64,000 bases of DNA from Candidatus Woesebacteria bacterium. GTDB lineage: Bacteria; Patescibacteriota; Microgenomatia; UBA1400; MFAQ01. This document shows, piece by piece, positions 7,000 to 58,416 of the stretch (the stretch's first letter is position 1; every line of letters starts with the position of its first letter). Under the pieces are notes generated by a model. The model was not told the DNA's origin, did no database searches, and saw only the letters and a list, made by a program, of their open reading frames with translations. Both the position numbers and the translations under genes were made by a program. Location of the stretch: assembly GCA_035389185.1 (NCBI GenBank), contig DAOORK010000001.1, positions 759,419 to 823,418 of the forward strand. Direction: 5' to 3'.

Positions 7000-7000
7000 T

Positions 7001-7429: not shown

Positions 7430-7430
7430 T

Positions 7431-27424: not shown

Positions 27425-27596
27425 CCCTCCTCATAGGCGAGTAGGTACTGAAATTCGAGAACTGGTGATTGACTCTAAAGAAACTTCCATTTAGAATCGA
27501 CCACGAGCTCTTGGAGCTCTAGTAAGGATTGCTCCTTGAAAAGTGAATAGATTATGCAAGTAGATCGCATGAATTCAAATTCAATTTGAAATTTTT

Positions 27597-30822
<3,226 letters not shown>

Positions 30823-30887
30823 ATTTATCATGCTATCTTTTTGCAATCGTCTATTCACTATTCAGGGAGTAATACATACTTTAATAT

Positions 30888-30961
30888 CGTATTAGGTATC
30901 AAGTATTAAGTATTATGTATTGGGAAATGCATAATACGTACTGCATAATACGTAATACGAG
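30888..30961. repeat. palindromic array of GTATTA(N)GTATTATGTAT-family repeats in 23S-5S spacer
   Basis: cgtattaggtatcaagtattaagtattatgtatt ... cataatacgtactgcataatacgtaatacg (second half is reverse complement of first). Confidence 0.6.
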
Positions 30962-31033
30962 AAACCTTGAAATTTGATAAACGATTATCACTGGAGAAGA
31001 TAGGAGAGAATTAATAACTTTTCTCTATTATCT

Positions 31034-31153
31034 TGTCCGGTGATCTGAGCGATTTGGAACCACCTCTTCCCATTTCGAACAGAGAAGTGAAACAGGTCAG
31101 CGTCGATGATAGTGACTGGGCAACCTTTTGCGAAAGTAGATCATCGCCGGGCA
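31034..31153 (+). rRNA. rrf: 5S rRNA
   Basis: CCATTTCGAACAGAGAAGTGAAAC and GCGAAAGTAG conserved blocks; terminal helix TGTCCGG/CCGGGCA; ~120 nt. Confidence 0.85.
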
Positions 31154-43514: not shown

Positions 43515-44570
43515 ATGAAGAACGTATTAAAAGCGTTTTTGGTCACAGTATTTCTGTTCATGTTGTTTGCCCCAAACCCTGTGTCGGCTGACGATTACGT
43601 CGGTAATGCCCTAGAGGCATTACAAAACGGAAACGTTTATGTTGATCCAGAACTGATTGGCACTCTGAGTGTAGATAACGATACAGCAAGTAAATTGCAG
43701 TCGAAACTGTTCGAAGGAGACAATTTGGTGCTGGTCATGTTACCAGCAGAAGCAGAGACAGGGACAGATATCTACGCAATTGCCCAACGTTTGTCCGAGG
43801 GATTGGGAGATCAGAAAATCATCGGGCTAGCTGTCGGCAATAAGGTGATTGGATATGGGCCAACGTTACCTTCAGGGGTAGCGGCAGATATGATGAGACG
43901 AGCGGACAATGTGTCCAATAATTCTTTAACGGCTCTAGTTACGTTCTCTCAGAATATTCATGCATGGCAAGAGGTTCATCCTCAACCAACACCCACACCA
44001 ACTCCGATACCAACTCCAGTACCCCAGCCAACTTCTGCCGAAGACGGTCAGAAATCATGGGTTATCGGCGGAATCTCTATGTTCGTTGTGGTGATCATCG
44101 CGATTGTGGTCTTAATCAAGGCACGACCAGTGATGACCAAAATCAGCCGAGTTCAGTCGTTTGCACCTTTGAAGAAACTGATCGAAAACATTCAAGAGAA
44201 TGCGAATGAGATCAGAGACACTCAGGTGAGAATTGAATTGAATGAGGCCTGTCTGGTGGCTGATGGCGTTGTGGAAAATCTCCAAAACGCGAGTAAGCCC
44301 CAGGGCTACATCGAAGAAAAATTCCCCGAACTACTGAAGAACATGGATGAACAGACCATGGCCTTACTGGGTCATGAGTCTAGAAAACATCCGTTAAACC
44401 AGGAGATTTTGGGGAAGTTGAAACAAGTATTGCTGGGTTATGATGATATCTTCTTGAAGTTTCAAGAAGGCGATGAGGATGCCGCAAGGTTGTTGGCTAC
44501 AATCATCGATTCGCAACAAACAGCTATTTCCACCTTGGGCTATCTGCCCGAGGATCATAAAAATAACTAG
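43515..44570 (+). CDS. membrane-anchored secreted protein with Pro/Thr linker (possibly TPM-like N-domain)
   Basis: signal peptide, PTPTPTPIPTPVPQPT linker, single TM, cytoplasmic coiled tail. Confidence 0.4.
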   Translation: MKNVLKAFLVTVFLFMLFAPNPVSADDYVGNALEALQNGNVYVDPELIGTLSVDNDTASKLQSKLFEGDNLVLVMLPAEAETGTDIYAIAQRLSEGLGDQKIIGLAVGNKVIGYGPTLPSGVAADMMRRADNVSNNSLTALVTFSQNIHAWQEVHPQPTPTPTPIPTPVPQPTSAEDGQKSWVIGGISMFVVVIIAIVVLIKARPVMTKISRVQSFAPLKKLIENIQENANEIRDTQVRIELNEACLVADGVVENLQNASKPQGYIEEKFPELLKNMDEQTMALLGHESRKHPLNQEILGKLKQVLLGYDDIFLKFQEGDEDAARLLATIIDSQQTAISTLGYLPEDHKNN

Positions 44571-44579
44571 GAGGAACGA

Positions 44580-45881
44580 ATGACAGAAAACGGAAACAAA
44601 GAAGATATTTTTGCAGGAATTGGAACCCCACCTGAGAAAATTGAGTCTTCGGAGCAGAGTTCCACTGTGGCGGCCCAGATCACCAATGATGTGGAGATTA
44701 AAGCCCAGCGGATGAAAGCAGAACTTGACGCTCAGCAAGAGGCGATGATCAAACAACAAAACTTGACCACAAAACGCATTGGTGATGTGGTTGGCTTTAG
44801 ATTGCAAACGGTTTTGGACGGCTGGTTTACCCCCGATCTGATCGCCAAGGCATCGTCCGATATCGCTCTGCGAAAAAATCTACGTCTCAACGTGGATTCG
44901 GCTGCTGTTTACGGCGTGGTGCCCGACAATGTTGTGGCCCAGTTTATAGACTCAGCGGCAACCAAAGCGACAGGTCAGGCTCGTCTCGAAGTAGCAAAAA
45001 CATTGGATGTGGCGACGGGAATTACCCGGAACATTTCCGATGATCGCGGGGTTTCAGCAGAAGAAGTGTCTAAAAAGGCACAGAAACTGCTTAAAATCTG
45101 GCGTGATACTAAGGTACTCGAGGCATTATTTGAGCGCCTGTTCCGTCAAACGGTTAACCGAGTGGTGGATTACCAAACTCGCCTGCAGAGTGTTAGCCAA
45201 GAGCTGGCCAAAAAGCAGGTGGTCCTGGAAAATGTGTCGACTTCTATGGTTGTTCGTCAGCAGATGGTGATAAAGAGTCTTTATGACACTTGTGTCGCCG
45301 GAATAGCTCTCGAAACAATCCTGGATCGAGAAACAAAGTACCTGCATGAGCTTGAGGAAAAAAAAGCTCAAGATACTGAAACGCCTCCTCAGGTTTGGGC
45401 CGAAAAGATTGATGATCAAATGAATTTGATTCAGATCATCACCAAACGGCTCGTCGATGAGAAGGCTTTTGCTATTAAACTCATCGGTCTCAATTCGATC
45501 TTGCGAAGCACCCGGAAGAACATCGCGGCTATTAAGGCTGATGTCGTGTTTTCACGCACCAACCTGATGGCTTCCTTGGGAATCCAACTTGGTTTGGTGG
45601 TCGATATGATCTCAACTTTGCGTATCAGTAAGGCGGCTCAAGATGTTCGTAGAGCAGAAGCCGAAGCGGCTAATCAAGTGGGAGTTGGAAGCCAGGCCTT
45701 GAATGAGGCCGGGAATAAATCTCTCCTTGAAGTTGATACTACGATCAAAAGCCTGCACGCGACTGTAAATGCTGCCCTTATGGGTATTCAGAATACCAAG
45801 GACAACATGCAACGCGTTCAGGAGATGACGGCAAAGGCTGAAAGCGAGTTCAGTAATATGTTCTCGCAGATGTCCGCGTAA
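44580..45881 (+). CDS. coiled-coil protein, TelA-like (toxic anion resistance family) candidate
   Basis: 433 aa all-helical, size and heptad pattern resemble TelA/KlaB; no catalytic motif. Confidence 0.3.
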   Translation: MTENGNKEDIFAGIGTPPEKIESSEQSSTVAAQITNDVEIKAQRMKAELDAQQEAMIKQQNLTTKRIGDVVGFRLQTVLDGWFTPDLIAKASSDIALRKNLRLNVDSAAVYGVVPDNVVAQFIDSAATKATGQARLEVAKTLDVATGITRNISDDRGVSAEEVSKKAQKLLKIWRDTKVLEALFERLFRQTVNRVVDYQTRLQSVSQELAKKQVVLENVSTSMVVRQQMVIKSLYDTCVAGIALETILDRETKYLHELEEKKAQDTETPPQVWAEKIDDQMNLIQIITKRLVDEKAFAIKLIGLNSILRSTRKNIAAIKADVVFSRTNLMASLGIQLGLVVDMISTLRISKAAQDVRRAEAEAANQVGVGSQALNEAGNKSLLEVDTTIKSLHATVNAALMGIQNTKDNMQRVQEMTAKAESEFSNMFSQMSA

Positions 45882-45967
45882 CTGATTAGTGTTATGAAAA
45901 GTCCCGAGGTGGCATAACTGTTGCCTGGGACTTTTTTAACAAATCCAAAATTTCAAAGGAGAATGTT

Positions 45968-46930
45968 TTGAAAACAAGGAAAGTGCAATTTGTAATCAGT
46001 TTGTTTATCTTGGTGGCCTTGGTTTTGACGGCCTGTTCGGTGTCCACAAAAACGGCCACCTGTGCCTACATCGTAGGTGCAGGCTATGGTGATTATGATG
46101 CCAGTATCCACGAGATCGTCTACCCCGGACAGACAGTTAAAGGTGGTGTTGATGGTGAAGTGATTCAATATGTTCCCTGCAATAGCAGGAACTACATCAT
46201 CAATGATGGTTCTAAGACGATGGTGGGTGGAGCACAGGTTGGTGATCAACATATCTTGATCAAAGCAACAACCAACACCGGAGTACAGATCTCGATTGCC
46301 GCTACAGCCTATTGGACACTGAACCAGTCACCTGAGGTGCTGAAAGACTTCTACACCGTTTGTCAGAAATACGAGTGTTATTCGGAGGCAGATGAGTCCG
46401 GAAACTCAAACTTCTCGACCGATGGCTGGAATGGCATGCTCGCGGAAAACTTTGGTCCCAGTATGGAAGCGGCCGCCCGTAAAGCTGCTTTTGTAGTGGA
46501 TGACTCGATTTGGCAGGTTAATGATCCTGTACAGTATCAGGCTTTGGCTGACAAGATGTCCGAGTACTTTGGAGGTGAGATTCAAGCACGGTTTGGCTTC
46601 GCTGAAGACTTTTTCTGCGGAAGCGGAAACTCACAATGGAGTGATCCAAATCAACCTGGTGTAGGCGAGTTTACCTGTTCTCCTGTGCGTTTTACAGTGG
46701 AAGATGTTAAACCATTGGAAAATGCTGCGGATACGGGTACTCCGGCTCAGTTGCAGTTGAACGCAGGTCGTCTTTCGAGCGCTGAAGCTCTGTATGGTGA
46801 GGATGCTAGTTACTGGCTTGGTTTGCAAGACACGATCGCGGCCTGTAAGGATGCAGGAATCACCTGTGTCTTTAACATCGGCGGCGGAAGTATGCCTGTG
46901 TCAGTGCCTGTCACGTCTAGTGGACAGTAG
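45968..46930 (+). CDS. lipoprotein, hypothetical
   Basis: lipobox LVLTAC; Cys-rich 320 aa. Confidence 0.5.
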   Translation: MKTRKVQFVISLFILVALVLTACSVSTKTATCAYIVGAGYGDYDASIHEIVYPGQTVKGGVDGEVIQYVPCNSRNYIINDGSKTMVGGAQVGDQHILIKATTNTGVQISIAATAYWTLNQSPEVLKDFYTVCQKYECYSEADESGNSNFSTDGWNGMLAENFGPSMEAAARKAAFVVDDSIWQVNDPVQYQALADKMSEYFGGEIQARFGFAEDFFCGSGNSQWSDPNQPGVGEFTCSPVRFTVEDVKPLENAADTGTPAQLQLNAGRLSSAEALYGEDASYWLGLQDTIAACKDAGITCVFNIGGGSMPVSVPVTSSGQ

Positions 46931-47886: not shown

Positions 47887-49470
47887 ATGCGTAGATTATT
47901 TAAGATCAATAAATCGTTTCTGAATGAGGTAGACAAGTTGTTTGCAGAAAACTTCGGGTTACCAGAGGTTGATAAACAAATGGCGATTTATTTTACTCAC
48001 GAAAAAGAAGAGAATAAAGAAGTCCATCTAAAATTAAAGAAACGACAATGTATTGTTAGATTCGTAAACAATATTTGGAAAGAAAAAACTGTTCCGGTTG
48101 AGTTCTCGACAAACGGGAAAGGATTTAGATCTCTTTTGAAATTGCTTCGAGACGCGGAATATATAAAAGCAACAGTCGGAAAAGTTGTAACACTGACTTA
48201 TGGAGAAGAAGATAAAGATAGCATCGAGGTTGTACTAAATTCTTTTATTGGTGATATTTTTTATACCCCTCAAACTGGTGAACTTAAATCGTGTGATCGG
48301 ATGTTAAAGAAGCTACTTGATAAAAAAATGATAGCTGAAATCGACAGGACTGAGATTCCTGAAACGATAGAAGAACTTTCATTAGAGAAGGTCCAGATAA
48401 TTGATGATCTGGGAATAATTAGAAAAGAAGTGTACGATTTTTGTCATGAAAGTGGTATTAATGTGGCGAATGCATCGGTGTCGTTAGGAGAACAGATTGA
48501 CTCTTTTAAAAATAATTATGAGATGTATGAAGACATTTTTAAACAATTAACGGGAGTGGATCTATTGGGAAAAGCATCGATAAGTGATACTTCTCTATAT
48601 GAGCCATTGTCAATCGTGATTCCAAGTTATAAATCAGAGGCGACAATAAAAAAGACACTAGCCTCGATTCAATCACAAGACCTTCCCTTGGAAAAGCTAA
48701 GAAAGACCGAAGTAATTATTGTTGATGATGGATCGGATGTTTCTGTTGAAGATATTCTTAAAGAATATGAAGGGGAAATCTTAACAAAATTAAGAGTAGT
48801 GAGATTAGTTAACAACTCTGGACTTTCAGTGGCAAGAAATATTGGTGTAGATATTGCGTGTAACAGAACGGTTTTGTTTTTGGATTCAGACGTTTTATTG
48901 TCAAAAAATTATTTATTGGAAGTATCTGTTCGGAATCAGATTATTCCAAATGCAGTGTTTGTAGCCTTTAAGGAGAATATTGATCCTAGTGACGAACGGA
49001 CGCGAATGAATACGATTGAAAAAGGATTGGATAGACCCGATATATCAAGAGACATGAGAATATCAAAAAATATTAGTGAAGAATCAAAAGGAATGATAAA
49101 CATTACCAGAAAAAAAGGTGTTGAGATTTTATCTGAGACAAATTATTTTAAAGATTTTGGATTTGGACGAAAGGTGGGAATTTTTGATTTGCCTTCGATG
49201 GTGATTGGACATAATATGAGTACTAGAGTTAAGACATTTTTGAGGACTGGCGGTTTTTCAAAAGAGTTTAAGGGTTGGGGGATGGAAGATAGTTATTTTG
49301 GAGCGAGAATGGTGGCAAATCGAAATTTTGTTATCCCGATTTTGAGTAGTGGTGTTTTCCATGTTGATCACCCTGTGAGGTCTGGGTCAGATGAAAAGAA
49401 GCAAAAAGAATTGATAAATAACATAAAAAGATACACACAATTACTGAATAAACCCTTTGATGCTGATTGA
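47887..49470 (+). CDS. family 2 glycosyltransferase with ~230-aa N-terminal extension of unknown function
   Basis: GT2 core SIVIPSYKSE...VIIVDDGSD...LDSDVLL (DxD); 527 aa. Confidence 0.7.
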   Translation: MRRLFKINKSFLNEVDKLFAENFGLPEVDKQMAIYFTHEKEENKEVHLKLKKRQCIVRFVNNIWKEKTVPVEFSTNGKGFRSLLKLLRDAEYIKATVGKVVTLTYGEEDKDSIEVVLNSFIGDIFYTPQTGELKSCDRMLKKLLDKKMIAEIDRTEIPETIEELSLEKVQIIDDLGIIRKEVYDFCHESGINVANASVSLGEQIDSFKNNYEMYEDIFKQLTGVDLLGKASISDTSLYEPLSIVIPSYKSEATIKKTLASIQSQDLPLEKLRKTEVIIVDDGSDVSVEDILKEYEGEILTKLRVVRLVNNSGLSVARNIGVDIACNRTVLFLDSDVLLSKNYLLEVSVRNQIIPNAVFVAFKENIDPSDERTRMNTIEKGLDRPDISRDMRISKNISEESKGMINITRKKGVEILSETNYFKDFGFGRKVGIFDLPSMVIGHNMSTRVKTFLRTGGFSKEFKGWGMEDSYFGARMVANRNFVIPILSSGVFHVDHPVRSGSDEKKQKELINNIKRYTQLLNKPFDAD

Positions 49471-49528
49471 GAAAATGGGATTGTAAGACTATTTTCGTTC
49501 CAAGATAAATATAGTGTTTGTTGACTAA

Positions 49529-50389
49529 CTACATTAAATCTGAATTAATTAAGAAACAAAGGTATGAATAGATTTGGAGCATCTGGCCGTTGTCAGTTCT
49601 TTCTTGTAAAACAGTATAAGCATTTTTGGGGTTAAAAAACTGTCTGTTAGTCGTTTCTAAGGGTATCCATTTCTTGTGATATTGTGTGATGTGTGATGTG
49701 GTTAACGGAATTTGAGAGACTGGCGGAAATTCTGAAATTGCTTGCCCAGTCAGATTGGTAACTTTGATATACCCAAAGACCCTGATGTTGTTAATTTCAA
49801 CACCACCTTCTTCTTGGGCTTCTCTTTGAAGTGTCTCTTGCCATGTTTCTCCATTTTCGATGTGTCCACCAAGAGGATTCCACCATCCATTTTTATCGAA
49901 GGTAAGCAATATACCCTTGTCATTTTCGGAAAAAGTAAGGGGAGTTGAGATATAAATATCAGAAGGGAGAATCTTACTTGGATGAAAAACGACATCTGCA
50001 GTAAGGTTACCTTTCCTGATGGTATAAGGGATGAACTTTCCTTGTTGAAGAAGATTATTTTTAATTTGATTGAGATCTATGTTGGATGGAATATCAATTG
50101 TTTTGGGATTAAGGTTGTTTTTGGGGAAAAGCAGTTTTGCTACAGAAAAACCTGCATAATTAAGAGAAATAATGTCATTTGAAGATTTTTGATGTTTTTC
50201 AATGAGACTTAGTAATTTCCAGAGATATTCTCTAATCGAAGGAGCGCTCCACTTTTTTCTTGAATCAAGGTCGATATCGGACAAATTTGATACAGGCTGA
50301 GAAATACTATCTGCTGATATATCCAGGGGGAATGGGATAACTTTTGTCAGTGGAAAACCCTTAGTTGAAAGTTGAAGAGAAACAGGCAT
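49529..50389 (-). CDS. NUDIX hydrolase domain protein with N-terminal extension
   Basis: Nudix box GGHIENGETWQETLQREAQEEGG in C-terminal half. Confidence 0.65.
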   Translation of the reverse strand: MPVSLQLSTKGFPLTKVIPFPLDISADSISQPVSNLSDIDLDSRKKWSAPSIREYLWKLLSLIEKHQKSSNDIISLNYAGFSVAKLLFPKNNLNPKTIDIPSNIDLNQIKNNLLQQGKFIPYTIRKGNLTADVVFHPSKILPSDIYISTPLTFSENDKGILLTFDKNGWWNPLGGHIENGETWQETLQREAQEEGGVEINNIRVFGYIKVTNLTGQAISEFPPVSQIPLTTSHITQYHKKWIPLETTNRQFFNPKNAYTVLQERTDNGQMLQIYSYLCFLINSDLM

Positions 50390-50390
50390 A

Positions 50391-50915
50391 TTAGTTAGTA
50401 ATGCCAGCTTTTTTTTTAAAGGTTTTTAATTCATCTGATTTTCCAAGCCATGGGATTATGTCACAAGCTTCGGCAATGGTGAATGCCTTGACAAAATTGA
50501 TGCGCTCGCTCATCTTTTCAGTTTCTTTTTCTTGAGACTTGAGAGTAAGATCTTGACTATTTTTTTCGAGTTTAATGAAAAACCTGGTTTGTAAGATGTC
50601 CACTAAGGAGGTTCCTTCAGAATTTGGTTCACTAACAAAATAGTAGCCGAAGAATCGTAATTTGTCAGAAATGTCAGTGATATCTTGACCAGCTTCTTCG
50701 CTAACTTCTCTGACGGCCGTCTCAACAAAAGTTTCTCCTAATTCTGGATGACCTCCAGGAAACTGCCATTTTTGACCATCTTTTGAGACAAGAATGATTT
50801 TGTTATCCGCAGTGAGAATCCAGACATACACTTGATTGACTTTGGTTGACTGATGTTCGTTCTTAATAACATCGCCTCCGACCCAACAAAAAGAGGTATT
50901 TAGTTTTGTATCCAT
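50391..50915 (-). CDS. NUDIX hydrolase
   Basis: Nudix box GGHPELGETFVETAVREVSEEAGQ. Confidence 0.75.
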   Translation of the reverse strand: MDTKLNTSFCWVGGDVIKNEHQSTKVNQVYVWILTADNKIILVSKDGQKWQFPGGHPELGETFVETAVREVSEEAGQDITDISDKLRFFGYYFVSEPNSEGTSLVDILQTRFFIKLEKNSQDLTLKSQEKETEKMSERINFVKAFTIAEACDIIPWLGKSDELKTFKKKAGITN

Positions 50916-50985
50916 AATTAGTTGATTATGATAATGTGTTTACAATTATAGATTAGTTGCCGAGATTAGGTTAAACTACAAAGTA

Positions 50986-51669
50986 ATGTTTGAGGGAAAT
51001 GAAAATATAAGAAGTGCAGAAAAAAAGGAAGCTCTTGGAGAAAGAGAGACATATGCATTAGTGATGGTAAAACCGCATGCGATGAGAGAGTCCGTCGATA
51101 CGGTGATAATGGATTTGTTTAGTGGAGGATTTGAGAAGCATTTGCCATATTTAAAGTTGTCGGAAGAGACCAAAAGGGTATTAGTTGATTTGAAGGTGTT
51201 GAGTTCTGAATATCGAGATTTAAGAGATGAAAGGTATTCTAGAATACTTGATATTTTGTATCAGAAAGAGGAGGGAAAACCGCAACACTCAATAATTAAG
51301 GAAGAATATACAGGTCCATGTTTGTTTATTATTCTTTCTTCATCTCTGACTGCCGATGTGTGTTATGGAGGACTTCAGGCATTAAAGGGTAAAGAACAAC
51401 TATTGAATGATTTTGGAGAAATAATTGATGAGGGTAATGGAATTCGGGGAGTGATGATTCAACCAAGAAAGATGATGGATCTTGACCACTTGAATGAAGC
51501 AGATATCAAAATAATCACTCAAAACGTGGTGCATGTAGCCGATAGGGAAAATGAAGCGGCAAGTGTAATCAGAATACTATTATCTCCGACAGAAGTTGAA
51601 CGACTGGGGACACTAGCTCCAGGTTTTAAAAAATTTATGAATAAAAATGCACCAGTTAGTATTATTTGA
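50986..51669 (+). CDS. nucleoside-diphosphate-kinase-like protein (divergent, extended)
   Basis: N-terminal ETYALVMVKPHAMRESVDTVIMDLFSGGF resembles NDK fold start; NVVHVADRENEAASVIRILL aligns to NDK N.IHGSDS.E.A.REI..FF with catalytic His retained but GSD changed to VAD; 227 aa versus ~145 typical. Confidence 0.4.
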   Translation: MFEGNENIRSAEKKEALGERETYALVMVKPHAMRESVDTVIMDLFSGGFEKHLPYLKLSEETKRVLVDLKVLSSEYRDLRDERYSRILDILYQKEEGKPQHSIIKEEYTGPCLFIILSSSLTADVCYGGLQALKGKEQLLNDFGEIIDEGNGIRGVMIQPRKMMDLDHLNEADIKIITQNVVHVADRENEAASVIRILLSPTEVERLGTLAPGFKKFMNKNAPVSII

Positions 51670-52300
51670 CATTGGGAACACCTTAATATATAGGGATAAG
51701 GATTTGATTGAATTTGATGTTGAATTGATAGAAATGTTTTTTAGAATAAACAAAAAGAAGGTTATTGATGTGATTAAAAATAAGCTTTTAGTTAGTCCAG
51801 GATTTTACGATTATTCATTAATTCGGATGAAAGATTTGGAAGAAGAGAGAACTTTCACTCATGGTTTTTTTATGTCAGTTTTTAAAGATTTGAAGATTTC
51901 TCTTGAGAAGTTGGATGGCTTTATTGCGAATCGTGAATCCGAACAAAGATACAAGGTGTTTCCCAGGGTTCGAGAGATGTTGTCTGAGCTAAGAAAACGA
52001 GGGTATATCTTGGGAGTGGCTTCAAACGGAAGACCTTCAAGAAGAAGTGTATTACAGCAAATGGAGTTAATGGATTATTTTGATCAAGACCAGATATATA
52101 TATCCGATGAGATGGGAGTTAATAAACCGAGTGAGGGATTTTTTGAGTATATTGAGAAGAAGTCAGGGTTTACTGAGTTTGTTTTATGTGATGACGAAAT
52201 TGCAAATATTGTTACAGTCTCTAAACATGGATGGAGAACGATAGAGATGGATCATAACAAAGATGTTTACAATGAAGTATTGTCAAAGATAATACGATGA
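51647..52300 (+). CDS. HAD-superfamily hydrolase
   Basis: motif I LVLFDIGNTL, motif II GVASNG, motif III/IV ...ISDEMGVNKP.. Confidence 0.65.
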   Translation: MHQLVLFDIGNTLIYRDKDLIEFDVELIEMFFRINKKKVIDVIKNKLLVSPGFYDYSLIRMKDLEEERTFTHGFFMSVFKDLKISLEKLDGFIANRESEQRYKVFPRVREMLSELRKRGYILGVASNGRPSRRSVLQQMELMDYFDQDQIYISDEMGVNKPSEGFFEYIEKKSGFTEFVLCDDEIANIVTVSKHGWRTIEMDHNKDVYNEVLSKIIR

Positions 52301-53427
52301 TGAAAATTTGTGAATATATTCCGACAGCGAGTTTTTTTGTAGGAGGGGGTGAAGTGTACCCAATGATTCAGGCTAAAGCCTTAGCTAGTATAGGTGAAGA
52401 TGTAACTTTGGTGGTTCTTAAGACAGATTTGGAGACGGATTATTTTAAAAAATTCAAAGAAGAAAACACAAACATAAAATTCGTATATCTTGAGTCGCCC
52501 TTTGAGCAGTTTTTGCCTTATGCAAAGAGAGAAGTAAACCATGATGCGATCCATGAGCTTTATTTTTCTTTGAGTAGGAGTATGTCGCAACTATGCTGTG
52601 AAAAGAAGTTTGATGCAGTTATTGTTCATTACGGTCCGGGAGTTATATCCGTACCTAAGGAAACAAAAGAGATTTTGTTTCTGCACGGAGTGCCATCGAC
52701 TTTACAGATAATAAATAAAACTGCTGTGTTGGTTGCTGATAAATTGTTTGCAGTGAGTAAATCTGTTGCTGAAGGATGGAAAGAATTGTTCGGTATCAAT
52801 GGACCAGTTGATGTTTTATATAATGCGGTAGATGCTGAAAAATTTTATCCAGATGAAAATATAGTTAAAGACATTGACCTTTTATATTTGGGAAGACTGA
52901 TTGAAATTAAAGGGGTACAGTATTTACTTAGAGCTGTTGCCATTTTGAATGAAAAGAATAATATTAATGTTAGATTGGTTATCGTTGGGGATGGCCCTTA
53001 TCGAAGAGATTTAGAAAAATTAACAGTGAAGTTGGGGATCGAAGACAATGTTGAATTTCTGGGGTTTTTGGATGAAGAGAAAAAGAGAGATATTTATAAT
53101 AGGGCGAGGATTTGTGTTTTTCCTTCGTATGCAAAAGAGGGAGTATTAACAACGATGTTGGAGGCAGCTGCATGTGGCAGTGCAATCGTAACAACAAATT
53201 CATGCGGAATGATTGATTTTTTGGAAGATGGAAAAGATGGCTTACTTTGTAAACCTAAAGACGGCAAAGATTTAGCAAGGAAAATTGAGATGATTTTAAG
53301 CGATAAAGAATTAATGACGATACTAGGTCATCAAGCACGCGAAAAAATTTTTAGAGACTGGAGTTGGAAAAAACATGTTGATAAGTTAAGTCAGGTGTTA
53401 TATCAATTAAAAGTAAAAGAGGAATGA
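52297..53427 (+). CDS. family 4 glycosyltransferase (GT-B, Glycos_transf_1)
   Basis: FLGFLDEE...VFPSYAKEGVLTTMLEAAACGSAIVTT..EDG.DG motif; ATGA overlap with HAD gene. Confidence 0.8.
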   Translation: MMKICEYIPTASFFVGGGEVYPMIQAKALASIGEDVTLVVLKTDLETDYFKKFKEENTNIKFVYLESPFEQFLPYAKREVNHDAIHELYFSLSRSMSQLCCEKKFDAVIVHYGPGVISVPKETKEILFLHGVPSTLQIINKTAVLVADKLFAVSKSVAEGWKELFGINGPVDVLYNAVDAEKFYPDENIVKDIDLLYLGRLIEIKGVQYLLRAVAILNEKNNINVRLVIVGDGPYRRDLEKLTVKLGIEDNVEFLGFLDEEKKRDIYNRARICVFPSYAKEGVLTTMLEAAACGSAIVTTNSCGMIDFLEDGKDGLLCKPKDGKDLARKIEMILSDKELMTILGHQAREKIFRDWSWKKHVDKLSQVLYQLKVKEE

Positions 53428-54299
53428 ACATTATATTCAAATCTGGAGGGGCTTCTTTGAAGATTATTTCTTCTAATGAATTGGGTGAAAAAATTTTAGC
53501 AACGAAGTTTTTTTATGACTACATTCCGGGATTGGTAATGTCTAAAGCAGCAATGGTGAGTGATGGAGAAGTTGAACTATATGAAAACTCTAAGTTTAAT
53601 TTCGAGTTTAAAGACGGTGTAGGGGAAATACATTTTAGTTTGGGTAAAAATTTAAGCATGATGGATTTGGTCACACTAATTGATTATTTACTTGAGTATT
53701 TTCGACAGAAAATGGGGGTTTATTGTCTACATGGAAGTGCAATTTCAATTAAGGGGAATGGAGTTTGGTTTATGGGGCCAATAAGTGGATTGGGTAAAAC
53801 AACCTTAGCTTTGAACATGTGCTTGCGTAATGATTGCAAATTTATTGGAGATGAAAAAATTCTTCTTGATAAGAAAGGTAATTTAATTGAGGGGATAAAA
53901 AATATTAATTACAACAAAGAATTATTGACCAAGTCGGTTGCCGTTAATTTTGATGGTATGGTGGAGAAAGATATACAAAATGTACTTGAATTAGAAAAGA
54001 ATCTAGTTCGTTTGAAATTGATTATATTACCAATATTGATGAGAGGAGCTGGATTTATTGAGATTGATAAATGGAAAATTGAGAAATCTTCTTTCCATAT
54101 ATATGAGCAATTATCCTTGAAGATAAGAGCGGTATCTAGACGATTAAATAATTTTGTTGTGCCAATACAATCAATTGATAACGATGAACTGAGCCAGAAG
54201 CGATCTGATTTTGCGAATGAAATTGTGAAAAATGTTGAGGTTTATATGTTAAAAGGGGACGAGAAGTCTGTGGCACAAAAAATTTTAGAACTGGTTTAG
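53424..54299 (+). CDS. HPr-kinase/phosphorylase-like P-loop protein (HprK C-domain-like)
   Basis: LHGSAISIKGNGVWFMGPISGLGKTTLALNM resembles HprK C-terminal Walker-A segment; 4-nt overlap with GT4 gene. Confidence 0.45.
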   Translation: MNIIFKSGGASLKIISSNELGEKILATKFFYDYIPGLVMSKAAMVSDGEVELYENSKFNFEFKDGVGEIHFSLGKNLSMMDLVTLIDYLLEYFRQKMGVYCLHGSAISIKGNGVWFMGPISGLGKTTLALNMCLRNDCKFIGDEKILLDKKGNLIEGIKNINYNKELLTKSVAVNFDGMVEKDIQNVLELEKNLVRLKLIILPILMRGAGFIEIDKWKIEKSSFHIYEQLSLKIRAVSRRLNNFVVPIQSIDNDELSQKRSDFANEIVKNVEVYMLKGDEKSVAQKILELV

Positions 54300-54394: not shown

Positions 54395-54985
54395 GTGAGG
54401 AATAATAGTTTTATTATTTTTTTGATTGGGCTGGCGGTGATACTTGCTGGGGTGTTGGGGTGGTTACTAATTAAAACGGGGACAATAAATATTGTCTTGA
54501 CCTCAAAACCTTCGAGAGTAGTGGAAAAAACGATTAGTAAAAGCAATGAGTTTTTCCCGACAGGCGCTGAAGCGAGTTTGGGAGGGCAAATTAACTGGAA
54601 AAGGAGTATTTTGCAGCCTGTTTTTAGCAAAACATCTGAGGACAAAGACGGAAAGTATTTGGATGTCTTTTTTCAGGCAACGGCTAGCGGTGAAATAACT
54701 GCCGGAAAGGTGTTTGTGATGATGCAAAATCGATATATTGATGAGAATGGAGTTGCGGTAACTATAAGTGATACGGAGCTGATGGGTAAGTTTAAAGAAG
54801 GAGATCAATTTGGAATATATTATGTGTCGCAGATTCCCGATGATTTTTCGGTGTCATCGGAGTATTGTCAGAATCCAAACGGAATGCCGGTGGAGTGTTT
54901 GGTGACGGCGCTTCAGCAAGTAAGTAATCAAAATGGAACGAATATTTTCTATCCGATGATGGTTTTTAGGAAATTGGTGGATTGA
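54395..54985 (+). CDS. membrane-anchored hypothetical protein
   Basis: N-terminal TM, 196 aa. Confidence 0.35.
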   Translation: MRNNSFIIFLIGLAVILAGVLGWLLIKTGTINIVLTSKPSRVVEKTISKSNEFFPTGAEASLGGQINWKRSILQPVFSKTSEDKDGKYLDVFFQATASGEITAGKVFVMMQNRYIDENGVAVTISDTELMGKFKEGDQFGIYYVSQIPDDFSVSSEYCQNPNGMPVECLVTALQQVSNQNGTNIFYPMMVFRKLVD

Positions 54986-55019
54986 TTGACGCAGATGGAA
55001 TAGTGGTTTAATATGAGCT

Positions 55020-56357
55020 ATGGAAAACGGAGAAAGAAAACCAGAGTTATCTGAGAGTATCGTGTACGTGAATGGGTATGAAAATTTGGTCGGTCAACTG
55101 GCCAAGGGGATGGTGGTAAAGGAAAAAGTGTTGTTTCCTAAAGAGGGCGATAATTTTGATCAAGAGGATATCTATAGCTGGATAAATGCGGTGAAACTGC
55201 GCGAGAGTGCGCCAAAAATTGAAGCAACACTAAAAGAAGACAAGGGGGAAAAAATAATTTATCTAAAAACTGAGAAACTGGAGCCCGTGCAGAACTTTGA
55301 TGAAGAAGCAGACAAGGATAGACTACTGTACTCAATGGCACTGACCGAGGCAAAAATGAAGGTGATTAAGGGGGTTGCGGAAGAGACCTATCCGGCTGTG
55401 GCTTTTCAGATCGCGGATTATCAGAAGGAGATGGAAAAGGTGCGCAAAGAGATTTTTGAGGTGCGTGATTGGAAGGTGAAGATGAAGGAAGTTTTTGATA
55501 AATTAAATAGAAATAAAGTACTTAAAGGGGCGACGGCAATTGTGATCTTGGGTCTTTTGATAGCGGGCTGTACGAGTGGCCCTGTGGTGAACCCTGAGAC
55601 GACGGATACTTCGGCCGTGCCTACAGAGGTAATGCCGACAGAGATGCCGACACCAACCGAAATACCGATGTCGGCAAGACCGGATTTTGAGTCGATGAGT
55701 GACGATGAGCTACTGCAAACTTTTGAGGAGTATAGAGCTTTGTTTACCGAGCAGATTGATTGCAAACCCGGAGCTGTGGGATTGCCCGAGGCTAAAGAGC
55801 AAGTAAAAATCATAGAGGATAATATTGGAAATACATATTGGAAGTCTGAGCTTTTGGGAGTTTATGAAGCTCCACTTACCGGAAAAGATGGCCTGCAGGC
55901 CGGATATGTGAATTGTCTGTATTTTGCGGCTTCTAATCCGGGGGAGGTTTTTACAATTGCCGGGGGAGGAGAGCTTTGGGGGGAAGATATTATGATGCAG
56001 GTTGATAATCAAGCGTTTGGAATATCTGCACCAACGAGTGTTGAAGGACTAGTAAGAACCGATGATCTGATGGCTAAACTTAGTGTGGGCGAGGAGTATC
56101 TTTTTGCTCCGGAATACAATACGAGAACAGAAGATCATTTAAATAGTCGGGATGTACAAATTAGGGCAGCAAGATATCGTGTGGAAAATGGGGGATATGC
56201 GTCAGCTTTGATGTATTTTATCGAAGAGATAGACATTCAAAATTGGATTCAGAATAATGTTGAATCGAGTTATCCCTATACGAATACATCGCAGTTGATT
56301 CAAAATACTGAAAAACCTGTTTATTCGTGGAGATTAGCACCGTATACAGGAGAGTAG
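55020..56357 (+). CDS. hypothetical protein with central TM/lipobox-like segment
   Basis: 445 aa; VILGLLIAGCTSGP in the middle of the protein. Confidence 0.4.
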   Translation: MENGERKPELSESIVYVNGYENLVGQLAKGMVVKEKVLFPKEGDNFDQEDIYSWINAVKLRESAPKIEATLKEDKGEKIIYLKTEKLEPVQNFDEEADKDRLLYSMALTEAKMKVIKGVAEETYPAVAFQIADYQKEMEKVRKEIFEVRDWKVKMKEVFDKLNRNKVLKGATAIVILGLLIAGCTSGPVVNPETTDTSAVPTEVMPTEMPTPTEIPMSARPDFESMSDDELLQTFEEYRALFTEQIDCKPGAVGLPEAKEQVKIIEDNIGNTYWKSELLGVYEAPLTGKDGLQAGYVNCLYFAASNPGEVFTIAGGGELWGEDIMMQVDNQAFGISAPTSVEGLVRTDDLMAKLSVGEEYLFAPEYNTRTEDHLNSRDVQIRAARYRVENGGYASALMYFIEEIDIQNWIQNNVESSYPYTNTSQLIQNTEKPVYSWRLAPYTGE

Positions 56358-56361
56358 GTTT

Positions 56362-58416
56362 TTGATAGACTTAATTGTGGGTAAAATACTGCGTTTTGGG
56401 AGCCTACTGATTTTTACAATAATTGCTTTGGGACGAGCTCCTGTGGTTTTGGCCGGCACATATTGTGCAGGCACAACAGTAAGAAGTATCATTAATTACG
56501 GGTGTACAACAGCAAAATATTGTGCAGTTGCTTTTTATACGAACGTTCCTATTTCTTGTCCAAACGACGGTTGTTCTTCTGATTCTTACGACTCAGCGCT
56601 ATCTATGTGTGAAGAAGATGGTGTTAATGTTGGGGTTAATGACTATTGTAACGGAAATGGTTCAGCAGAATCTGTGAGCACAAAAACGACTCAGTGTTAT
56701 GTGTATTGCAATGAGAATAACTGGACATCATGTTCTGAAAGTTGCGGTGGGGGAATAATGACTAATGATTGTGGAGATTCCCAAGATTGCAATACACAAC
56801 CTTGCTGTACCGAGACGGCGCCGGCCAGCCCGACAGCAGTGAGTCCGATGACCGTGGATGGCTACACAGAAAAAACTGGGACAGCAACCTTGACCTGGAC
56901 GGCGGTGACGGCGTGGGGAGAGGAGTGTACCGGAAGCCAGACGAGGGGATACGAGATATGTGTAAGCGGAAATGCGGCGGACCCATGTAATGGACAAACA
57001 CCGATTACTGTTGCAGGAGAAGGGGTAACTTCCTATCAGGCATCGGGAATGACTTCGGCGATCAACTATTGGCAGGTGAGAGCCAAGAATAAAGCTGGAG
57101 AAGTGTCTAGCTGGTCTTCACCACAGAATTTTTGTTATTACGGCTCGGATTCTGTGAATCCATTACCGGCGTTGAGATGGAGCGCTTGTGACGGGGATAC
57201 TCATATGCGTTCACGAACTTGTGAAGTGGGCTGTGATTGTTCAACGGTTTCTTTATCTGAGGTTTGTCAAGCTGAAGTGAGTGGAACATTTTTTGATGCC
57301 AGTTACTCGACTGACTGCGCAACGGGAGACACAACTGCTTCAGGGCTAAGCTTTACCATGACGGATACAGCCGGAACACCTCCAGCCCTGATTTTCTTGT
57401 CACCGACATTTAATGGGACAACAAATTATTTAGGAAATTATGCCGTGACTCTTTACCCGAGAGCATATTATGATTTTGATTTTACCTCCCTATCCACGTT
57501 TTTTGATGTAACGGCCGGGCCAAGAGTATTTTGTGGAACTTCTTCTGAGAAAGATGTTTTGGTTCAGGATAGTGATGCGGATAGAGATTGTTTGACTCAA
57601 CCGTGTACAACCTTGAACAACGTGAGCTTTGGTTTTTGGAAAATATTTGGGGGCTGGTGGCAAGCGGTTGGAGGAAATGCTTATGGCGCGGGGGGAGTCA
57701 AGAGCTATATTCCGCCTCAGATGGCTTCGACTGACCAACGTCTGATTTTGCCAGACACTAATGGCAGATATGGTGTATTGTCGTATGGAACGAAGACAGC
57801 CGAAGAACTGGGACAAAGCAGTGAGGCACGAGTGAGTACTGTACTTTGGGAGGTGCAGAGCTTGTACCAAGGTCTGCGTTTTGACTTTAATTATTACAAA
57901 ACAAGGATGGACGTTTTTACTCAGACAAGTTGGGATGGGGGCGAGATCAACTACAACGATGGAGGAGCGGGCTTCCAAATTTTTGCCCATACCGGAGATG
58001 TGACTTTGGGTGCGCTGAGCTTGAGTGCAGGGCAAAAAGCGATTTTGTTGGTTGATGGCAGTGTAACGGTAAACGGAAACTTACTGACCCCCGAAGGAGC
58101 ATTTTTGTCGATTGTGGCGAGTGAGAATATTGTTTTTAATCCTGGGGTGACGCAGGCACAAGGGTGGTTCGTGGCGGAGACAATAGATTTGCCCTGTTTG
58201 GATGCAAATAGCGATAATGCCTGTGACAAGACAGACACGCAGTTTTTGGGAGAAGGCTCATTTGTGGGGTGGACAAATATTCTTTTGGGCCGAGATCAGG
58301 GACTGTTGAATAATTCTCAACCGTCGGAGAAGTTTACTCTACGGAAGGATATGCTTATTTCGGCGCCAACACCGATGAAGGTGTACACAAAGAGATTTAC
58401 ACCATTTATCCCTTAG
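56362..58416 (+). CDS. secreted Cys-rich protein with FN3-like segment
   Basis: N-terminal hydrophobic signal; >30 Cys in first 300 aa; TLTWTAV...YQASG...YWQVRAKNKAGE fibronectin-III-like pattern. Confidence 0.45.
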   Translation: MIDLIVGKILRFGSLLIFTIIALGRAPVVLAGTYCAGTTVRSIINYGCTTAKYCAVAFYTNVPISCPNDGCSSDSYDSALSMCEEDGVNVGVNDYCNGNGSAESVSTKTTQCYVYCNENNWTSCSESCGGGIMTNDCGDSQDCNTQPCCTETAPASPTAVSPMTVDGYTEKTGTATLTWTAVTAWGEECTGSQTRGYEICVSGNAADPCNGQTPITVAGEGVTSYQASGMTSAINYWQVRAKNKAGEVSSWSSPQNFCYYGSDSVNPLPALRWSACDGDTHMRSRTCEVGCDCSTVSLSEVCQAEVSGTFFDASYSTDCATGDTTASGLSFTMTDTAGTPPALIFLSPTFNGTTNYLGNYAVTLYPRAYYDFDFTSLSTFFDVTAGPRVFCGTSSEKDVLVQDSDADRDCLTQPCTTLNNVSFGFWKIFGGWWQAVGGNAYGAGGVKSYIPPQMASTDQRLILPDTNGRYGVLSYGTKTAEELGQSSEARVSTVLWEVQSLYQGLRFDFNYYKTRMDVFTQTSWDGGEINYNDGGAGFQIFAHTGDVTLGALSLSAGQKAILLVDGSVTVNGNLLTPEGAFLSIVASENIVFNPGVTQAQGWFVAETIDLPCLDANSDNACDKTDTQFLGEGSFVGWTNILLGRDQGLLNNSQPSEKFTLRKDMLISAPTPMKVYTKRFTPFIP

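Follow-up and report, generated by a model that had tools for sequence, protein, structure and literature searches.

Do the seven closely packed genes at positions 47,887–54,299 of a Candidatus Woesebacteria DNA window (the whole stretch analysed, 64 kb) belong together, and if so, what might they make? An earlier note, made from the sequence alone, had proposed a single island coupling sugar transfer to nucleotide and diphosphate handling, distinct from a standard O-antigen cluster, and had suggested that it might make or edit a nucleotide-activated sugar or a phospho-glycan.

A compact, AT-rich block of seven genes

Seven densely spaced open reading frames fill this interval exactly (Table 1), with intergenic distances, in gene order, of 58, 1, 70, −23, −4 and −4 nt, confirming the tight spacing and overlaps that had been noticed. 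The three overlaps (−23, −4 and −4 nt) point to an operon structure and so support one module. The block is AT-rich, with a GC content of 0.348 compared with 0.442 across the remaining window, and each of the seven encoded proteins has a soluble prediction. Pfam matches above gathering scores back the annotation of the GT2, both NUDIX proteins, the HAD and the GT4; those to NDK (E = 9e-4) and Hpr_kinase_C (E = 4e-5) were below. The individual families are common and generic, and none reached equivalog-level assignment in NCBIfam. The 70-nt divergent region is presumed to be a bidirectional promoter region; its top promoter-like match lay on the minus strand (50,974–50,945), and total match counts were no higher than in shuffled sequences. 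The window also holds a second GT2 and a sortase, envelope genes near the module.

Table 1 Features of the seven-gene block, with positions in the window
Feature	Position	Strand	Evidence
CYTH(degenerate)::GT2 glycosyltransferase, 527 aa	47887-49470	+	Pfam GT2 7.6e-22, Glyco_transf_7C; AF2; Foldseek
NUDIX hydrolase, long form, 286 aa	49529-50389	-	Pfam NUDIX 8.1e-11
NUDIX hydrolase, short form, 174 aa	50391-50915	-	Pfam NUDIX 2.8e-13
70-nt divergent intergenic region, NUDIX pair versus NDK-HAD-GT4-kinase operon; presumed bidirectional promoter	50916-50985	.	Gene layout
Divergent NDK-like protein, 227 aa	50986-51669	+	Pfam NDK 19.6 bits (gathering score 27)
HAD-IA hydrolase, 217 aa	51647-52300	+	Pfam Hydrolase/HAD_2 ~1e-10
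GT4 (GT-B, retaining-type) glycosyltransferase, 376 aa	52297-53427	+	Pfam Glycos_transf_1 5e-41
Mini-PEPCK/HprK-superfamily P-loop kinase, 291 aa	53424-54299	+	Pfam Hpr_kinase_C 4.3e-5, PEPCK_ATP 2.4e-3, both below gathering score

The gene set travels together across CPR lineages

Using the kinase as the module's marker gene, we sampled 20 other non-redundant loci, with kinase identities from 54% down to 25%, and counted neighbours within 7 kb. At least eight CPR lineages and a gut ‘Alphaproteobacteria’ MAG are represented. A GT4 gene was present in 20/20 loci, in the great majority directly upstream of the kinase and usually overlapping it. One to three NUDIX enzymes were present in every locus, NDK and GT2 each in 19 (the sole miss for both being a truncated contig) and HAD in 17. 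The earlier note had named scattering of the genes in relatives as what would refute an island; this synteny is the opposite outcome, and it upholds the proposed coupling.

Might the genes simply be chance neighbours, with generic glycosyltransferases lying next to a housekeeping ndk and to NUDIX enzymes that sanitise nucleotides in the manner of MutT? Every family involved is indeed common, generic and below equivalog-level assignment. Yet six functions stay linked across the sample, the non-CPR MAG included, despite rearrangement of gene order from locus to locus, subfamily swaps and fusions; moreover, the genes overlap, and the composition of the block differs from that of its flanks in 19/19 loci. 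The association exceeds chance by far: with the same functional set beside the kinase in 20 other loci, chance association is untenable, and synteny effectively refutes this explanation. We are highly confident that the seven genes are a single functional module.

Comparison of the loci shows that the NDK-like protein, NUDIX, GT4 and the P-loop kinase are an orthologous core that travels together, and that GT2 and the phosphatase form a tail swapped among subfamilies. The tail is CYTH::GT2 plus HAD-IA in the window and, elsewhere, GT2 plus a Cof-type HAD-IIB, the two being fused into single GT2::HAD-IIB proteins in two lineages (L016 and L021). Accessory genes comprise an adenosine deaminase (L005 and L007) and a SAM methyltransferase (five loci). 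Genes flanking the module vary by lineage; Glycos_transf_4 and PMT_2 occur in the vicinity of locus L008. In the neighbourhoods of the loci, we found no flippase, polymerase, transporter, lipid-carrier transferase or precursor-peptide gene conserved with the module, in agreement with the earlier view that this is not a standard O-antigen cluster. We did not find a description of the module in the literature.

The inventory of enzyme classes matches that of nucleoside natural-product and phage nucleotide-modification pathways. The classes seen here, which agree with those of phage hypermodification, are NUDIX, NDK-like, kinase, HAD, deaminase and methyltransferase enzymes and a GT-B plus GT-A pair. 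Nucleic-acid hypermodification in the T-even phage manner, in which pool enzymes would bias dNTPs and the two glycosyltransferases would modify an altered DNA or RNA base, is nevertheless very unlikely. The neighbourhoods of the loci show no conserved hydroxymethylase and no other conserved enzyme of base modification, and the module differs from both kinds of pathway in having no scaffold-forming enzyme and no phage relatives: the kinase and NDK-like protein had none in GenBank phages, IMG/VR or, giant-virus PEPCKs excepted, BFVD. Pfam and NCBIfam detected no nucleic-acid-binding domain in the module proteins, and PADLOC returned only generic NUDIX matches.

A half-size PEPCK-like kinase

The last gene had been described as encoding an HprK-like P-loop protein. 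The P-loop stands, within the motif series H-G-S-A, G-P-I-S-G-L-G-K-T-T and G-D-E-K; neither the P-loop nor G-D-E-K varies across the family alignment (A1), many basic residues are likewise invariant, and an RKIRGxSRR-type basic helix is conserved. The family numbers 134/406 clusters. The HprK identity does not stand: Foldseek with the AF2 model (pLDDT 93.7) gave 35 best matches that were all ATP-PEPCK (TMq 0.50–0.59, E down to 2e-8), while HprK reached a TMq of about 0.28, and the sole viral structural match was a giant-virus PEPCK. Profile scores were below threshold for Hpr_kinase_C (PF07475; 23.6 bits, gathering score 33.3), TIGR00679 (25.5 bits, cut-off 240) and PEPCK_ATP (PF01293; 17.1 bits, gathering score 26.5). 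HPr kinase/phosphorylase was therefore rejected as an identity, its HMMs being under threshold and its fold match confined to the P-loop domain.

On the predicted structure, the protein is a half-size (mini) ATP-PEPCK-like P-loop kinase. Its two-domain fold aligns with ATP-PEPCK over the whole length and has the motifs H-x-S-A, SG-x-GKT-T and GD-D/E in common, but it is about half the size (291 aa compared with ~530–540), and the PEPCK substrate-motif region is unconserved in the alignment. Like HprK, it has a Walker A P-loop with an acidic motif after it, but it lacks the HprK-type (MurE-like) N-terminal domain. From the PEPCK/HprK superfamily as a whole it differs in the extra invariant Arg/Lys-rich helix and the constantly adjacent GT4.

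Divergent NDK-like and intact NUDIX enzymes

The description of the fourth gene product as a divergent NDK-like protein was borne out. Lys29, Tyr92, Arg154, Asn180 and His183 correspond to NDK K12, Y52, R105, N115 and H118 and are invariant or nearly so (alignment A2), so that the catalytic and phosphate-binding residues of NDK (PF00334), including the phospho-histidine, are all present. A PDB search with its profile picked up almost nothing but NDKs, which aligned over three collinear segments (best 3vvt, 5.7e-7). The Pfam NDK match of the window protein falls short of the gathering score and covers only the C-terminal N-x-x-H region; type B orthologues score above threshold, at 29–42 bits. 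Compared with typical NDKs of ~140–150 aa, the protein is enlarged, with longer Lys-to-Tyr and Arg-to-Asn-x-x-His segments, and it sits within a glycosyltransferase operon. Every lineage shows this combination of strong divergence and enlargement with a complete set of catalytic residues, which is not what a simple housekeeping enzyme would lead one to expect.

Both NUDIX proteins scored well above the PF00293 gathering score of 21.1 (42.5 and 50.5 bits). The long form carries its Nudix domain at residues ~140–286, with an intact Nudix box (GGHIENGETWQETLQREAQEEGG), behind an N-terminal extension of ~130 aa that occurs in the closest relatives only; orthologues elsewhere are ~170 aa (alignment A6). 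The short form, whose Nudix box is also intact (GGHPELGETFVETAVREVSEEAG), belongs to an orthologous group found in 20/20 loci. The G, E, R-E and E-E positions of the box GX5EX7REUXEEXGU are invariant in both orthologous groups (A6). NCBIfam equivalog matches were all far under their cut-offs and assign no substrate class. The tandem pair reported in the earlier note is present here but is typical of the type A cluster only, most type B loci having a single NUDIX. A NUDIX enzyme within a glycan cluster has a precedent in WcaH/NudD of the colanic acid cluster.

Two glycosyltransferases of unlike fold

The GT2 had been credited with a 230-aa N-terminal domain with no obvious motifs. The domain is there, but it is not featureless: residues 1–232 (nt 47,887–48,582) form a degenerate CYTH/triphosphate-tunnel-like domain from which the ExExK and EIE acidic motifs are absent. 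The single window sequence had no Pfam match; a profile of the domain (A5) matched CYTH proteins in seven of its eight PDB matches (best 2een, 1e-7). The CYTH/TTM group includes class IV adenylate cyclase, thiamine triphosphatase, PH1819 and Saci_0718. The domain is homologous to that of a sister clade with canonical CYTH motifs, ExExK/R and G-x-F-x-E-I-E (hhalign, 99.6%, E 2e-24), and its predicted strand and helix order agrees with that of the CYTH barrel. Both acidic metal-binding motifs have been lost from the window clade: 0/46 sequences carry either, compared with 14/16 sister-clade sequences carrying both, and the window protein reads LFKINKS and FIGDIFYT at these sites. The CYTH fold binds organic tri- and polyphosphates. 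In the sister clade, CYTH::GT2 adjoins a histidine phosphatase and, in L039, also HD, ITPase-like and adenylate-kinase-like genes. Fusion to a GT-A glycosyltransferase sets these proteins apart from other CYTH/TTM members, and we found no description of such a fusion in the searchable literature. In type B loci and L027 the tail GT2 and HAD occur without a CYTH domain, which places CYTH outside the core.

The GT-A catalytic domain (residues ~240–527) has the motifs VDDGS, DSD, GWGxED and HxxHPxR, the first three invariant; it scored above the Pfam threshold (78.5 bits), and the AF2 model (pLDDT 92.1) had K4CP, ppGalNAc-T and TarP/S as its best Foldseek matches. The GT4 scored 140.5 bits, also above threshold, with a C-terminal E-x7-E read from the sequence (EGVLTTMLE); its nearest PDB structures were sucrose-phosphate synthase (6kih, 8e-18) and BshA (2jjm, 3mbo and 5d00), with MshA and TarM also among the matches.

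The presence of TarM, TarP/TarS and ppGalNAc-T in these lists would fit a pair of enzymes decorating a macromolecule, either an envelope polymer, in the manner of TarM and TarS on teichoic acid, or a protein or peptide phosphorylated on Ser by the HprK-superfamily kinase. HprK and lasso-peptide kinases phosphorylate Ser, faint ScmC matches were seen in Pfam, and envelope genes lie near some loci (those in the window and at L008). We regard macromolecule glycosylation as unlikely. The whole-length fold of the kinase is that of PEPCK rather than HprK, the module proteins are without exception predicted soluble, and flanking genes vary by lineage. The gaps among the module genes are insufficient for a peptide gene, and the transporter, flippase, polymerase, lipid-carrier transferase and precursor-peptide genes sought are not conserved with the module.

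The phosphatase and the choice between small-molecule chemistries

The HAD protein scored above threshold with the family HMMs (PF00702/PF13419), but its set of the four HAD motifs, which include D-x-D in motif I, is incomplete. Conservation extends to nucleophile Asp8, the motif II Ser, Lys160, Asp182-Asp183 and an NGRPSRR loop, but the usual acid/base Asp at position +2 is replaced by Gly in 9/9 aligned sequences of type A and by Asn in L027 (alignment A7). An enzyme with an Arg-rich loop and no general acid would, judging by these residues, be adapted to a substrate that is polyanionic and has a good leaving group. Weak NCBIfam matches of the HAD-IA were to REG-2-like, CTE7 and pyrimidine 5′-nucleotidase families. 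The type B HAD-IIB enzymes have the canonical DxDxT, and the HAD halves weakly match the families of mannosyl-3-phosphoglycerate phosphatase, S6PP and phosphoglycolate phosphatase.

The pairing of a glycosyltransferase with a HAD phosphatase, both soluble and cytoplasmic, is shared with SPS/SPP, TPS/TPP, MpgS/MpgP, GpgS/GpgP and MshA/MshA2. The module could thus follow the logic of sucrose-phosphate, trehalose-phosphate, mannosyl- or glucosyl-3-phosphoglycerate and mycothiol synthesis: a small hydroxy-acid or sugar phosphate, which the PEPCK-like kinase might supply, would be glycosylated by GT4 and GT2 and dephosphorylated by HAD. NDK and NUDIX would then just regenerate NTP from NDP and keep the NDP-sugar pool in check, in hosts without de novo nucleotide synthesis. 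We rate this compatible-solute-type chemistry as doubtful but a close second to a nucleotide-centred one. It gains from the GT2::HAD-IIB fusions and canonical type B HADs, the families that the HAD halves match, the GT4 relatives sucrose-phosphate synthase, BshA and MshA, and a kinase fold nearest to PEPCK, a C3/C4-acid enzyme. The sister-clade pairing of GT2 with a histidine phosphatase also resembles mycobacterial GpgS/GpgP, in which a GT2 is paired with such a phosphatase.

Against it, the family matches are all far under curated cut-offs: for the named synthases and phosphatases (SPS/SPP, MpgS/MpgP, GpgS/GpgP and MshA), no equivalog threshold was reached, with best scores of 20–100 bits against cut-offs of 160–600. 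A phosphomonoesterase should have the acid/base Asp that is missing from the type A HAD, and the divergence of the NDK in every lineage and the accessory adenosine deaminase are left unexplained. NDK, NUDIX and CYTH are not known from compatible-solute clusters. The features in common with glycoside-phosphate systems are confined to GT-plus-phosphatase pairing and fusion; the module differs in combining two glycosyltransferases of unlike fold with a dedicated PEPCK-like kinase and a divergent NDK, and each locus adds one to three NUDIX enzymes; none of these is known from glycoside-phosphate pathways.

A possible nucleotide-derived product

Our tentative preference is for a nucleotide-derived acceptor that would be glycosylated, phosphorylated and then trimmed. 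Alignments show predicted catalytic residues intact in the NDK-like protein, both NUDIX enzymes, the GT-A domain and the kinase P-loop. A nucleotide scaffold is pointed to by the divergent yet catalytically complete NDK-like protein, the intact-box NUDIX in every locus, the CYTH-derived domain on GT2 and the many invariant basic residues of the kinase. The acid-less, Arg-rich HAD-IA, with pyrimidine 5′-nucleotidases among its weak matches, points the same way, as do the sister-clade neighbours (the histidine phosphatase and the L039 HD, ITPase-like and adenylate-kinase-like genes) and the accessory adenosine deaminase and SAM methyltransferase.

Several observations weigh against nucleotide-centred chemistry. 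Known GT–phosphatase fusions, of which L016 and L021 provide examples here, come from sugar-phosphate and hydroxy-acid glycoside pathways, and none is known from nucleoside pathways. The closest solved relatives of GT4 take sugar-phosphate, malate and inositol-phosphate acceptors, and PEPCK works on C3/C4 acids. CYTH is not core, NDK and NUDIX could merely manage NDP and NDP-sugar pools, and the module has no conserved nucleotidyltransferase or base-modifying enzyme.

On the nucleotide reading, the module would glycosylate a nucleotide-derived small molecule and control its phosphorylation state. The kinase and NDK-like enzyme would increase the phosphate level of the scaffold, and two sugars would be added from NDP-sugars, the first by GT4 (retaining type) and the second by GT2 (inverting GT-A type), the degenerate CYTH domain docking the acceptor (tri)phosphate. 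NUDIX would cut the pyrophosphate and HAD would remove the last phosphate, releasing a product that, in some lineages, an adenosine-deaminase-family enzyme or SAM methyltransferase may tailor.

By NCBIfam, the module proteins are orthologous to none of the characterised pathway enzymes, and the module as a whole is without a characterised counterpart. It is a soluble, cytoplasmic six-function unit, the Woesebacteria version of a conserved CPR gene set, and it probably makes a sugar-decorated small molecule.

Conserved clustering of the seven genes across CPR relatives

All seven open reading frames that an earlier note, made from the sequence alone, had placed in the module were confirmed at their coordinates. 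Pfam matches above threshold were obtained for the GT2 (residues 242–376, plus Glyco_transf_7C at 440–478), both NUDIX proteins, the HAD and the GT4, while the NDK (19.6 bits) and Hpr_kinase_C (23.6 bits) matches fell below it; equivalog-level NCBIfam assignments were obtained for 0 of the 7 proteins, and none of the seven has transmembrane-like segments. The NDK-like, HAD, GT4 and kinase genes overlap successively by 23, 4 and 4 nt. On the opposite strand, 1 nt separates the two NUDIX genes, and a 70-nt divergent spacer lies between them and the NDK-like gene. A promoter and terminator scan of the region gave counts not above those of shuffles.

Kinase homologues were collected by database search and their contigs retrieved; a scan derived from the alignment, covering one genome for each GTDB species, was added. 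The resulting synteny set held 20 non-redundant loci (the window's own species not counted), labelled Woesebacteria, Amesbacteria, Shapirobacteria, WWE3, Saccharimonadales/Saccharibacteria, Lloydbacteria, Buchananbacteria and Paceibacterota; three gut ‘Alphaproteobacteria’ MAGs were entered as one locus, L027. Neighbours within ≤7 kb of the kinase gene were counted by iterative searches seeded from both of the cluster types described below. A GT4 gene (directly upstream in the great majority) and a NUDIX gene were found near the kinase in 20/20 loci, NDK and GT2 genes in 19/20 each, and a HAD gene in 17/20; the sole miss for both NDK and GT2 was L018, a contig ending inside the GT4 gene. The earlier note had held that scattering of the genes in relatives would speak against a joint function; we found the same functions clustered. 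These neighbour counts contradict chance juxtaposition, which is effectively excluded, and that the seven genes form one functional module is well supported.

Two layouts were distinguished. Type A, found in the window, Microgenomates, WWE3 and one Saccharibacteria locus, comprises a long GT2 fused to a triphosphate-tunnel domain (CYTH::GT2), two NUDIX genes, a divergent NDK, a HAD-IA, a GT4 and the kinase, in variable order. Type B, found in Parcubacteria-type lineages and Saccharimonadales, is an operon with all genes in one direction: GT2, Cof-type HAD-IIB, NDK, NUDIX, GT4 and kinase. L024 carries all six genes co-directionally at 5915–10867. A ‘minimal three-gene core’ for type B was ruled out, as GT2, HAD and NDK are present there too, from other subfamilies. 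GT2 and HAD are fused into a single 570–579-aa protein in L016 and L021. The L027 kinase is only 25% identical to that of the window, with NDK-like, NUDIX, GT4, kinase, HAD and GT2 genes still adjacent. Because NDK, NUDIX, GT4 and kinase are orthologous in all loci, and the GT2 and phosphatase come from different subfamilies in type A, type B and L027, the module consists, on these orthology assignments, of a conserved core and a GT2–phosphatase tail that can be swapped.

Five loci carry an accessory SAM methyltransferase gene, and L005 and L007 one for an adenosine-deaminase-family protein. No conserved export, polymerase or precursor gene accompanies the module, which argues against a role in envelope-polymer or protein glycosylation; we consider this unlikely, and it fares worse than the two leading readings discussed later. 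Module GC is 0.348 compared with 0.442 in the remaining window, and cluster GC was below flank GC in 19/19 loci, yet follows host GC; such low GC tracking that of the host is an accessory-gene signature. The distribution of the module is patchy but wide across CPR, with at least one occurrence outside it. Three MAGs (L012, L015 and L022) are labelled ‘uncultured Pseudomonadales’ or ‘Gammaproteobacteria’ yet carry a CPR-type module, with kinases 54%, 36% and 30% identical to the window's, respectively; the taxon assigned to these third-party assemblies is probably incorrect.

Genomic surroundings of the module

The window lies on the chromosome of a Candidatus Woesebacteria member (CPR/Patescibacteria). 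Proteins identical to the window's also occur on anaerobic-digester metagenome contigs. Most genes neighbouring the module lack a Pfam match, and the window flanks are not kept beside the module in other lineages. Among the proteins that the flanking ORFs encode are one of 1,225 aa, a Cys-rich one of 684 aa and several that appear to be secreted or membrane-anchored. A second GT2 gene lies ~4 kb downstream, on the opposite strand; its homologue is similarly placed in the closest relatives but not in more distant loci.

No 16S rRNA was found anywhere within the 64-kb window, and the 23S match covers 3,222 nt compared with a 2,925-position model, which suggests that the 16S is unlinked and that the 23S carries at least one insertion. 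Both features are on record for CPR bacteria. GC skew is positive in all 2-kb windows of 1–64000 (0.08–0.43) and cumulative skew climbs monotonically, so the entire window lies on a single replichore, with strong strand bias.

Positions of the module, its surroundings and related features in other loci
Sequence	Position	Strand	Feature
Window	27352–31152		tRNA-Ala, 23S and 5S rRNA set
Window	39695–43372	−	Large flanking ORF without Pfam domain
Window	43515–46930	+	Large flanking ORF without Pfam domain
Window	47887–54299		Seven-gene module
Window	51647–52300		Type A HAD
Window	54395–58416	+	Large flanking ORF without Pfam domain
Window	58413–59294	−	Second, ordinary GT2 (293 aa; Pfam 5e-35)
Window	62739–63365	−	Sortase gene
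L005	13896–14777		Homologue of second GT2
L012	4980–5861		Homologue of second GT2
L013	14021–15571	−	516-aa protein with NDK-like domain
L037	7486–12352		Sister system: 279-aa histidine-phosphatase-like, then canonical CYTH::GT2, then 570-aa GT2
L039	102–5185		Sister system, same order

A predicted PEPCK-like fold for the P-loop kinase

Across the kinase family alignment, the motifs G-x-x-S-G-L-G-K-T and G-D-E-K are invariant, as are many Arg and Lys residues. Single-sequence PDB searches with the kinase or the NDK-like protein gave no match, and profiles were required; the kinase profile matched both ATP-PEPCK and HprK weakly. The top 35 hits to a confident AlphaFold model of the kinase (pLDDT 93.7) were ATP-PEPCKs, which it matched along its entire length (TMq 0.50–0.59); HprK/P matched in the P-loop domain only (TMq ~0.28). 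The protein, termed ‘HprK-like’ in the earlier note, is therefore not an HprK orthologue and is best described, by predicted fold, as a half-size PEPCK-like kinase.

An exhaustive profile search placed 134 clusters (50% identity) in the family at E ≤ 1e-30 and 406 at E ≤ 1e-10, nearly all members being stand-alone proteins of 270–310 aa. Some homologues carry the Pfam label PF27840 (‘ScmC’), through ‘faint’ matches only; we take ScmC to be an uncharacterised protein of the SynChlorMet cassette, and a search of the ScmC literature found nothing relevant. A candidate GT4::kinase ‘Rosetta-stone’ fusion, P0266 (639 aa), was rejected, its N-terminal domain being unrelated. P0266 is a distant kinase-family member outside the module, with a degenerate P-loop (GGAINLGKSS) and a ~360-aa N-terminal region that by eye looks like a Rossmann-type transferase.

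An enlarged NDK-like protein

Orthologues of the window's NDK-like protein occur in all type A loci, and its close homologues are rare (six clusters). Its profile matched essentially only NDKs in the PDB, in three collinear segments (best E 5.7e-7), and K29, Y92, R154, N180 and H183 are invariant or near-invariant; we take these to be K12, Y52, R105, N115 and the catalytic H118 of NDK. Type B orthologues exceed the Pfam NDK threshold with low scores of 29–42 bits. In NDK, the segments from the Lys to the Tyr motif and from the Arg to the Asn-x-x-His motif line the nucleotide cleft on the side of the base. Both are enlarged in the NDK-like protein, which may reflect an unusual substrate. One locus, L013, encodes a protein whose C-terminal half is the NDK-like domain, preceded by an uncharacterised N-terminal region of ~215 aa.

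A CYTH-related domain in the type A GT2

The GT-A half of the GT2 has the motifs VDDGS, DSD, GWG-x-ED and H-x-x-H-P-x-R, and in a confident model built with database homologues (pLDDT 92.1) it resembles the chondroitin polymerase K4CP, polypeptide GalNAc-transferases and TarP/TarS. The N-terminal 232 residues are kept across about 46 CPR homologues, and they align with the N-domains of a sister clade, in which ‘IECELRG’ and ‘IGDFFEIEE’ occur. Seven of the eight PDB matches to the N-domain profile were CYTH/triphosphate-tunnel structures (2een at 1e-7, 7ns8, 1yem, 2dc4, 3n0y, 2fjt and 2aca), and the window clade alone matched the sister clade with 99.6% probability (E 2e-24), so a domain that had seemed motif-less is CYTH-related. 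As both acidic CYTH motifs are missing in every window-clade member, it is a degenerate and probably non-catalytic CYTH, and we infer that it binds a phosphate-rich ligand.

The sister-clade GT2 belongs to another cluster, where its neighbours are a histidine phosphatase and a second GT2. These clusters were ruled out as a module extension, with no kinase or NDK there, and may represent a second uncharacterised system linking glycosyltransferases with phosphate/nucleotide-handling enzymes. A stand-alone CYTH gene adjoins the system in L037, and HD, ITPase-like and two adenylate-kinase-like genes lie nearby in L039. Among homologous proteins, P0150 (578 aa) has an APH-type small-molecule kinase domain fused to GT2, and P0124 (601 aa) has an N-terminal region ~60 aa longer, whose start (VRHL...) resembles, by eye, the sister clade's histidine-phosphatase neighbour.

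NUDIX, HAD and GT4 proteins

Both NUDIX orthologous groups have a full Nudix box, with unspecific matches in PDB and NCBIfam; the 130-aa N-terminal extension of the long NUDIX is limited to the window, L005 and L007. The type A HAD retains the nucleophile, motif II, Lys160 and the motif IV aspartates (alignment A7). Its motif I reads F-D-I-G-N-T, the acid/base Asp+2 being replaced by Gly in 9/9 aligned type A sequences and by Asn in L027, and motif II is followed by a near-invariant, Arg-rich loop, NGRPSRR. In the Cof-type HADs of type B, motif I is the canonical DxDxT (D-I-D-G-T). The GT4 is a standard retaining-type GT-B, with sucrose-phosphate synthase, BshA and, more distantly, MshA as its nearest solved relatives.

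These GT4 relatives, the Cof-type phosphatases, the GT::HAD fusions and the PEPCK-like fold of the kinase point to a compatible-solute-type glycoside, made via a phosphorylated intermediate; NDK and NUDIX would then do no more than service the nucleotide-sugar economy. We regard this pathway as possible but doubtful, and as a close rival to the reading that we favour.

A candidate nucleotide-centred chemistry

We tentatively favour nucleotide-centred chemistry, yielding a glycosylated nucleotide-derived scaffold, because one scaffold would account for every component. It would be phosphorylated by the kinase and NDK-like enzyme, trimmed by NUDIX and HAD, docked by the CYTH remnant, tailored by the deaminase and methyltransferase, and decorated by the two glycosyltransferases. 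A fuller version, speculative and rather improbable in its entirety, is that the product is a previously unknown glycosylated nucleotide or nucleoside, acting as a signal, antimetabolite or protected nucleotide store in the host or phage dealings of these ultra-small episymbionts, and that the mini-PEPCK-like kinase, remodelled NDK and CYTH-derived acceptor-docking domain evolved specifically for that scaffold.

Phage-like nucleic-acid hypermodification, which also fares worse than the two leading readings, is very unlikely, with no base-modifying enzyme in the module and no phage relatives: none were found for the kinase or NDK-like protein in GenBank phages or IMG/VR, and a BFVD search returned giant-virus PEPCKs only. 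A phage origin was rejected on the same searches, PHROGs matches being generic only. A defence-system reading was also set aside, as the only PADLOC matches were generic NUDIX ones, to a candidate family, and the GT4-conflict Pfam match was far weaker than those to generic GT4 models.

The enzyme superfamilies of the module are all known. We found no description of a Nudix/NDK/HPr kinase/glycosyltransferase combination in CPR, Patescibacteria or Saccharibacteria in the searchable library, and the six-function combination, with its mini-PEPCK-like kinase family, enlarged NDK clade and CYTH::GT2 fusion, appears undescribed. CPR/Patescibacteria account for much of bacterial diversity; to our knowledge, they are unable to synthesise nucleotides themselves, and no function is known for most of the genes conserved among them. 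The module is a compact set of six enzymes, soluble and hence experimentally tractable, with the PEPCK-like kinase as a clear marker gene. Solving its product would show what an uncharacterised kinase family, the divergent NDK clade and the CYTH::GT2 architecture do, would test whether chemical diversity arises from a conserved core and a swappable GT2-plus-phosphatase tail, and would reveal whether CPR organisms spend scarce nucleotides on a specialised glycoconjugate.
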